From positions 270,816,001 through 270,880,000 of the forward strand of contig OZ024740.1 of the NCBI GenBank assembly GCA_964016885.1: DNA of 64,000 nucleotides, read 5' to 3'. The translations under genes and the position numbers were made by a program. The stretch is from Eledone cirrhosa (lineage: Eukaryota). Below, piece after piece: positions 4,940 to 5,733 of the stretch (its first letter is position 1; each line of letters opens with the position of its first letter). Below the pieces are notes generated by a model. It was not told where the DNA came from and did no database searches. It saw only the letters and a program-made list of their open reading frames with translations.

Positions 4940-5733
4940 AATTAAGTTAAAAGTGTACATCCACATATGTATACTGAAATACTAGTATGCATATAAATAC
5001 ACACACGTATACATATGTACATGTACCGAGTTTTTCACTGGACACTTTACTGTGAGTGTCCAGCTAGTCTGTATGTAACCAAACAGACAAACCGGGTTTT
5101 AGAGTCATACGGGTTTTCAAGGAAACACCTTTCCTCTATTCTCCAGAGAGCCAGACAGGAATATTGGACTAGTTTCGATGTTATTACATCTCATCAGCAA
5201 TATAAACCCATCTTCCGGCTTCTCTAGAGAATCGTAAAAGCACATATCGTTATATGCTTTTTCTATGAAAATTAGTAGTGGGAAGACTAATTTGCATAGA
5301 ACGTGAGTTGTACGCACCGGTTCAGCGGAAACGATAAAAACAAATAACGAAACGAAATTAAATTTCGTTTCGTTTGTAACTCACTTTTGTATGACTGACG
5401 CTTAAACAATTAAGTTAAAAGTGTACATCCACATATGTATACTGAAATACTAGTATGCATATAAATACACACACGTATACATATGTACATGTACCGAGTT
5501 TTTCACTGGACACTTTACTGTAAGTGTCCAGCTAGTCTGTATGTAACCAAACAGACAAACCGGGTTTTAGAGTCATACGGGTTTTCAAGGAAACACCTTT
5601 CCTCTATTCTCCAGAGAGCCAGACATATACATATGTGGTTGTACACTTTTAACTTAATTGTTTAAGCGTCAGTCATACAAAAGTGAGTTACAAACGAAAC
5701 GAAATTTAATTTCGTTTCGTTATTTGTTTTTAT
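4940..5733. repeat. 468-bp unit partial tandem with inversion, sister family of the 466-bp array
   Basis: 4940-5157 is repeated at 5408-5625 (period 468). 5626-5733 is the reverse complement of about 5334-5441. Shares TCATCAGCA, ACTAGTTTC, ACCCATCT, TATGAAAATTA, CTAATTTGCATA and AAACGATAAA with the 466 unit in the same order. Flanked by (TA)n. Confidence 0.88.
5161..5203 (-). ncRNA. Canonical minimal type I hammerhead ribozyme
   Basis: AUAUUG-CUGAUGA-GAUGU aaua ACAUC-GAAA-CUA-GUC|CAAUAU. Stems I and II are perfect, the core is intact and the cleavage triplet is GUC. Confidence 0.88.

Follow-up and report, generated by a model that had tools for sequence, protein, structure and literature searches.

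The window analysed here, a 64,000-nucleotide stretch of the Eledone cirrhosa genome, carries two tandemly repeated units of 468 and 466 nt, each with a hammerhead ribozyme core, and raises the question of what kind of repeat these units are and how they came to lie there. An earlier note on the 468-nt unit had read the pair as a diversified family of functional RNA elements rather than a neutral satellite, under long-term selection on RNA structure and on unit size. On the evidence set out below, the repeat is probably a non-LTR retrozyme, likely mobilised into (TA)n tracts by a Penelope-like element (PLE) enzyme. Non-LTR retrozymes are a known class, and this family is then a further member of it.

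Layout of the insertions and distribution of the families

The two insertions were assigned to separate families, A and B (Table 1). The long arm of A contains a 218-nt direct repeat with 99.5% identity, and its inverted partner stops at a 3′ end lying ~70 nt farther along the unit, in the manner of a PLE-type tail. The A hammerhead has a stem I of 6 bp, a stem II of 5 bp, a palindromic stem III (ACUAGU) and a GUC triplet, with the cut predicted after GUC, between 5167 and 5166. Within the B insertion (~8779-14592) 13 hammerhead cores were found in total at 466-nt spacing, and those of the right arm have a GUA triplet and U.U at the base of stem II. Across both arms there are 11 full B units, ten of them identical and the remaining one differing by 1 nt, which would be consistent with a single recent round of copying from a circular or multimeric template. 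Hammerheads in the window were called from the core motif and its stems; an Rfam scan of the whole window at gathering thresholds returned no matches.

Table 1. Positions of family A, B and C features in the window
Feature	Position	Strand	Remarks
Family A insertion (probable retrozyme)	4940..5733		two divergent arms between (TA)n tracts
Family A long arm	4940..5625	-	1.47 units of 468 nt; "short" fixed 3′ end at 4940
Family A inverted, 5′-truncated arm	5626..5733	+	108 nt, of which 107 match 5334-5441; 3′ end at 5733 is the "long" fixed end
Type I hammerhead of family A	5161..5203	-	one core in the insertion
12-nt box TATGCAAATTAG	5287..5298	-	exact match to the upstream box of one host U6 gene
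Predicted hairpin with TATA-like word	5236..5261	-	31 nt from box to TATA-like word (35-37 nt in host U6-type genes)
(TA)n-rich tract separating the A and B insertions	5734..8778		probable target
Family B left arm	8779..10933	-	4.6 units of 466 nt; five hammerhead cores; short end near 8779
Family B right arm	10932..14592	+	7.9 units; eight hammerhead cores; long end at 14592
Decayed copy of the older related family C	24836..25187	-	box variant at 25130-25120; broken hammerhead core near 25003

The tract between the A and B insertions is broken by ~430 nt of non-TA sequence at about 6740-7170. A second decayed copy of family C lies at 56935-57333. The window also contains host gene exons with von Willebrand A domains at 54833-55444 and 60409-61143 (-), the first of them matching Pfam PF00092, and a small Cys-rich exon near 47518-47907 may belong to the same gene.

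Across the 3.0-Gb genome the hammerhead core pattern gave 23,648 matches, 13,478 of them B-type, against none for the reversed control. A pattern requiring the upstream box described below together with the core gave 1,545 matches against 9 in controls; among 100 of these that were listed, about a third were variants of B, the remaining ones leading to families C, D, E, F and G. Sequence similarity links A, B, G and C, and D weakly, and no detectable link of this kind ties E or F to the other families. Copies are spread over the chromosomes and are mostly short, with identities among copies of 99-100% in young families versus about 80% in old ones, and arrays of 12 to 30 or more near-identical, pure units are also present. 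Searches for rare stem II sequences yielded 78 matches against 7 in the control, and 20 such loci proved to be mostly mutated A or B copies or unrelated old hammerheads, in none of which was a PLE frame continuous with the unit.

The hammerheads lie in consecutive tandem units, both in the B array of the window and in A-type arrays elsewhere. Units are short (427-538 nt), below 50% GC (36%) and non-coding, their sole frame being a 114-aa stop-to-stop stretch over the TA-rich part of B, and the circular monomer is predicted to be highly self-paired. No reverse transcriptase (RT) plus GIY-YIG frame was found inside the unit, so the element can only be non-autonomous. In all these respects, and in its type I ribozyme, the repeat resembles the metazoan non-LTR retrozymes as described in the accessible portions of two sources (PMC7229834; bioRxiv 10.64898/2026.07.22.740005), whose copy number likewise ranges from dimers to long arrays. 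The U.U at the stem II base of B also occurs in HHR_Amex2 of the axolotl, and the units are longer than the 170-400-nt RNAs given in available parts of the same paper (PMC7229834) and within the 51-972 nt of the preprint. Divergent arms, paired long and short ends, (TA)n targeting and a U6-type box were not found in the published retrozyme descriptions covered (available parts of PMC7229834 and of the preprint, within a partial literature). Nor was a description of this family found in the partial literature covered.

A U6-type box upstream of the ribozyme

The longest invariant run across ten A and B monomers is the 12-nt box TATGCAAATTAG, which lies outside the ribozyme, 90-100 nt upstream of its core. 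With at most one change, the box stands at -77 to -79 in all five distinct host U6, U6atac and RNase MRP promoters (three U6, RNase MRP and one U6atac copy, the one among the six read that has a promoter-like flank), each of which has a TATA at -30; one U6 array copy without the box is interrupted by an insertion. It was absent from the examined upstream regions of U1, U2, RNase P and 7SL and had no non-family match in 817,498 background bases. The host RNase P RNA gene carries a U1/U2-type upstream element instead of the U6/MRP box, and this suggests from sequence that the gene is transcribed in Pol II fashion.

As in the host U6, U6atac and RNase MRP promoters, the box of the repeat is followed by a TATA-like word. 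It is identical or near-identical in families A-F while the downstream sequence diverges, a set in which D and E were found with a pattern requiring the box and the copies of C and F by similarity to box-containing queries. The U6-type spacing of 35-37 nt is found in family F alone: the distance is 31 nt in A and B, hence 4-6 nt short, and ~29-33 nt in C-E, and the TATA word of A is weak. In the old family F, a 36-nt spacer was seen in six of the seven copies passing the filter (26 loci). Copies of F (period ~300-410 nt, ~80% identity among copies) run from box, 36-nt spacer and TATA through a first 20 nt resembling U6 to the hammerhead. The U6-like start is a 21-mer that begins with G at TATA+30; it beat all 300 shuffles in 10 of 19 copies and scored poorly in six, and counts as one test because it concerns one family and was noticed after the fact. 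Nothing of the kind was found at TATA+30 in A-D.

That the box is a working promoter in the repeat is, on its sequence, about evenly balanced, and a Pol III promoter specifically would be less probable than promoter function in general. The chance that the same retrozyme cycle runs with a box of another kind, either a strand of an RNA hairpin or an enhancer site for an octamer factor, with transcripts made by Pol II or by read-through, is considerable and somewhat short of even. The short spacing in A-E is in favour of this, as are sense-strand T runs of 5-8 in eight of ten monomers, which would be apt to terminate Pol III transcription short of a full unit, and the two or three tandem octamer boxes of family C, an enhancer-like arrangement in a family whose stem III is a non-palindromic 3-bp helix. 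Pairing of the box within the RNA, as the 5′ strand of a predicted hairpin in A, could explain part of its conservation by structure, and the location of the TATA-like word inside a predicted hairpin also counts against a working U6-type promoter in A and B. Against a purely structural role, almost no variation is seen in the box strand, but its partner strand varies and loses pairs, with none of 12 pairs changed on both sides, which argues for a role as sequence; the predicted partner moreover differs between families, being downstream in A, B and D and upstream in F. The spacer, TATA word and U6-like start of family F also stand against a non-promoter box, as does the lack of the box in host Pol II snRNA genes. 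Two other promoter candidates were rejected: TAATTTTCATA as a PSE, which pairs with the box and is absent from host snRNA promoters, and a U1/U2-type promoter, whose host TCAGT-type element is not conserved between A and B.

Transcription of hammerhead repeats from within the unit has precedents. Schistosome Sm-alpha is transcribed by Pol III from internal tRNA-type boxes. Both it and newt satellite 2, as far as the available accounts go, are hammerhead tandems like the present one, in which a promoter inside one unit drives the next copy. Newt satellite 2 is reportedly transcribed by Pol II from an snRNA-type promoter (cited in the available part of PMC2220036), which speaks for a Pol II origin of the transcripts, whereas the box here matches that of host U6, U6atac and MRP and not the U1/U2 element. 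Neither an octamer nor a U6-type box was found described for hammerhead repeats or retrozymes in the partial literature covered.

Insertion ends and resident Penelope-like elements

Ends were typed for 53 insertions in 55 loci, of which 17 were hand-picked, mostly because copies on both strands were visible there. Within each family the 5′ ends are scattered, and the 3′ ends fall at two fixed positions separated by 55-75 nt. Among 35 two-armed insertions, 33 are divergent and two convergent. Where both ends of a divergent insertion could be typed, 28 of 29 combine one long with one short end, one has two short ends and none has two long; in four further divergent insertions one end was untypable. 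Typed ends reach (TA)3 or longer in 74 of 81 cases, against 677 of 5000 random positions in the window.

Two fixed 3′ ends, an inverted 5′-truncated copy and a bias towards microsatellite targets correspond to the tail, inverted truncated copy and microsatellite bias described as the PLE signature (PMC8557442, as available). According to the accessible portion of PMC11167929, a PLE in purified form cleaves AT-rich DNA on both strands, extends both and begins reverse transcription at two internal sites bracketing the tail, which would explain the tail seen here, and in this PLE hammerhead cutting was unnecessary for insertion. The repeat is similar to PLEs of the Neptune and Hydra types and to non-autonomous Chlamys elements such as MRC1, which have partial tandems, an inverted 5′-truncated copy, an optional tail and microsatellite targets (PMC8557442; PMC11167929) and a type I hammerhead with a short palindromic stem III (PMC6765202), in each case in the parts of these sources at hand. 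Unlike them it has no RT or GIY-YIG frame, a tail of 55-75 rather than 30-40 nt, and no 3′ sequence in common with the autonomous families sampled.

The genome contains autonomous PLEs whose open RT plus GIY-YIG frames span 844-1096 aa, and their insertions show like long and short ends at (TA)n. Several PLE families have long open frames, and some of their hammerheads combine a degenerate core with a palindromic stem III. When the A and B units were compared with the terminal repeats of 50 GIY-YIG loci, the best-scoring part of ~10,600 candidates, no similarity was found except for inserted copies of the family in three loci; none of these 50 elements carries the 12-nt box, and the terminal repeats of several PLE families that were read share no sequence with the A/B unit. 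Since no particular PLE among the 50 loci is linked to the repeat by sequence, we infer the partner enzyme, and a PLE enzyme is the likely mover. This differs from the frog retrozymes, which are homologous to PLE terminal repeats (pLTRs); the 2026 preprint on them, in the portion available, argues that retrozymes derive from PLEs, and only one of its nine dimers cleaved in vitro (bioRxiv 10.64898/2026.07.22.740005). Homology-free mobilisation in trans has been noted for LTR retrozymes (PMC10886601, as far as available).

The frog homology, together with the PLE-like ends and target, is also what could favour a different view, in which the units are pLTRs or 3′ fragments of an unseen autonomous PLE family and not an independent small RNA. 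We consider this unlikely. No PLE frame was continuous with the unit among those A and B loci whose frames were listed, the pure arrays of near-identical units speak against it, and pLTR homology was lacking in the 50 best-scoring GIY-YIG loci.

The window holds PLE remains of its own. A broken element at 41720-45740, which we take to be of Hydra type by its motifs, combines frames of RT-motif and endonuclease-like character at 42595-44469 with hammerheads of its own at 42359 (+), 45672 (+) and 41954 (-); it also has an inverted 5′ copy, and its long and short ends lie in TA tracts. A second PLE fragment at 15240-17490, with TA tracts on both sides, has a GIY-YIG-like frame at 16467-16844 (-) and hammerhead-like motifs with palindromic stem III at 15427 (-) and 17399 (+), and its family recurs in many of the genomic loci examined. 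At 4348-4909, adjoining the family A insertion, a hammerhead-like motif at 4747 (+), whose stem II is long and whose stem III is palindromic, lies between the copies of a 77-nt direct repeat (487 nt apart); judging from sequence, it may represent a further insertion of PLE type within the same TA nest. Six broken frames in the window went unrecognised by Pfam.

Selection on the RNA and a proposed life cycle

The A hammerhead and the B cores carry the stems that the earlier note had described, with GUC confirmed in A. The compensatory change it had called complete is partial: of 12 core pairs in stems I and II compared between window copies, only five change on both sides and still pair, six are identical and one is broken. 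The broken pair, G-C in A and U.U in B, is the stem II base pair that had been left out of the comparison, and it is unpaired in 9 of the 15 rows of a 15-copy alignment. The units, which had been thought hard to align, align end to end with 260 of 424 columns identical (61%) and differ by several mutually offsetting indels of 13-45 nt. Selection on unit length is not supported, given the 427-538-nt spread of 47 distinct monomers, which leaves the 2-nt match in length between A and B without evidential value.

For selection on RNA structure the case is stronger than first argued. Circular A and B monomers are predicted to fold with equal helix order and with 67-68% of bases paired. Fold z scores for A and B were -8.2, -11.2 and -11.4 on the hammerhead strand against -7.1, -7.9 and -3.6 on the opposite strand, and an older B′ copy ran against this trend (-5.2 and -6.3, respectively; 25 shuffles each). 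The 15-copy alignment, which represents two lineages, too few for a real covariation test, and from which four copies that were truncated or chosen for a mutated stem II were omitted, has 89.8% of cells paired versus 82.1% in shuffles (0 of 500 as high) and changes on both sides in 8 of 30 pairs, a count reached by 235 of 500 shuffles. Covariation across families was seen in a permutation test on families A-F, based on one hand-picked natural copy per family with the stem III register placed by eye. For stem I, which covaries strongly, 35 of 36 cells are paired, and for stem II, over its first four pairs, 22 of 24 are; among 720 permutations the identity assignment alone reaches the stem I or stem II value, and the first pair of stem I shows all four Watson-Crick forms. 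The inactive GUG triplet is rare as well: 23,648 copies include 118 with it, and of 100 such copies that were listed 84 sit in one ~52-kb array, so the dead variant can grow locally and hardly disperses. This triplet usage gives indirect support to the predicted self-cleavage.

This array, at C3:12.272-12.325 Mb, comprises ~100 B-type units in one orientation and of variable length, those listed all being GUG; judging by its units, it is a ribozyme-dead array expanded in the manner of a satellite. In a long A array unit variants recur, and two loci 4.2 kb apart repeat one unit series, and such recurring variants in longer arrays would fit later expansion at the DNA level. Such arrays are what a satellite spreading by DNA-level recombination with a fossil ribozyme would produce, yet as an account of the whole repeat this is very improbable: the copies are dispersed and mostly short, with fixed 3′ ends, random 5′ ends and divergent arms, their stems covary across families and the GUG variants barely disperse. 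For dispersal the satellite explanation is largely refuted. Equally improbable is a family of functional non-coding RNAs under host selection, as the earlier note might be read, for which the strongly conserved structure and the abundance of retrozyme circles in mussel, coral and axolotl tissues (PMC7229834, as available) could be cited, since the succession of young and old families with insertion signatures marks a mobile element and no conserved single locus was identified. Of the view that this is functional RNA and not a neutral satellite, the selected structure therefore stands, with the qualification that some long arrays grow like satellites; the selection is best read as acting on the replication of a selfish retroelement itself and not on a host function, structure being conserved, we propose, because only copies that fold and cut can spread.

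The retrozyme reading suggests the following life cycle. Transcription would likely start from a promoter within the preceding unit, marked by the U6-type box that precedes the hammerhead by 90-100 nt. Because stem III is palindromic and has a loop of 2 nt, poor cutting is predicted for the 43-nt monomer unless it pairs with a second copy, and hammerheads with such a stem III are described as cutting as dimers (PMC6765202; PMC7229834, both as available); adjacent ribozymes would thus presumably cut as a dimer through stem III, after GUC, GUA or GUU. By analogy to published retrozymes, the monomers would be circularised by a host ligase. A PLE enzyme would then nick both strands of a TA tract and prime reverse transcription internally at two sites, one per strand, separated by 55-75 nt, and the two cDNAs would join at their truncated ends, being multimeric if the template is a circle or multimer. 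Priming at two sites and joining of truncated cDNAs would yield divergent arms with one long and one short end. Later growth at the DNA level would enlarge some arrays, also where the ribozyme is dead, as seen in one case. The mismatch at the stem II base of B counts against this model, as do the lack of a partner PLE among the 50 loci compared, the frog result of one cleaving dimer in nine and the dispensability of hammerhead cutting for insertion in the purified PLE; the insertion with two short ends, the two convergent loci and the four insertions with an untypable end are exceptions to the end pattern.

It is possible, and we put this forward tentatively, that a retrozyme lineage captured the gene-external U6 promoter of its host (Pol III type 3) and that a PLE moves it in trans by structure and not by common sequence, through two internal priming sites, one for each target strand. 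Family F would then retain the U6 spacing and the first ~20 nt of U6. The promoter could be carried through retrotransposition because the unit is tandem or circular, which is impossible for ordinary SINEs.

For animal retrozymes, arguments on the mobilising enzyme have so far been built on co-occurrence and on homology to pLTRs; here the insertions themselves bear the PLE end signature. The near-strict pairing of long and short ends puts the two-site internal priming observed in vitro to a test on genomic copies, and such priming would let a circle serve as template. For retrozyme transcription, a box common to the host's U6, U6atac and MRP genes gives a specific promoter hypothesis. With young, near-identical copies beside open-frame PLEs, the questions of the mover and of the promoter become directly testable.
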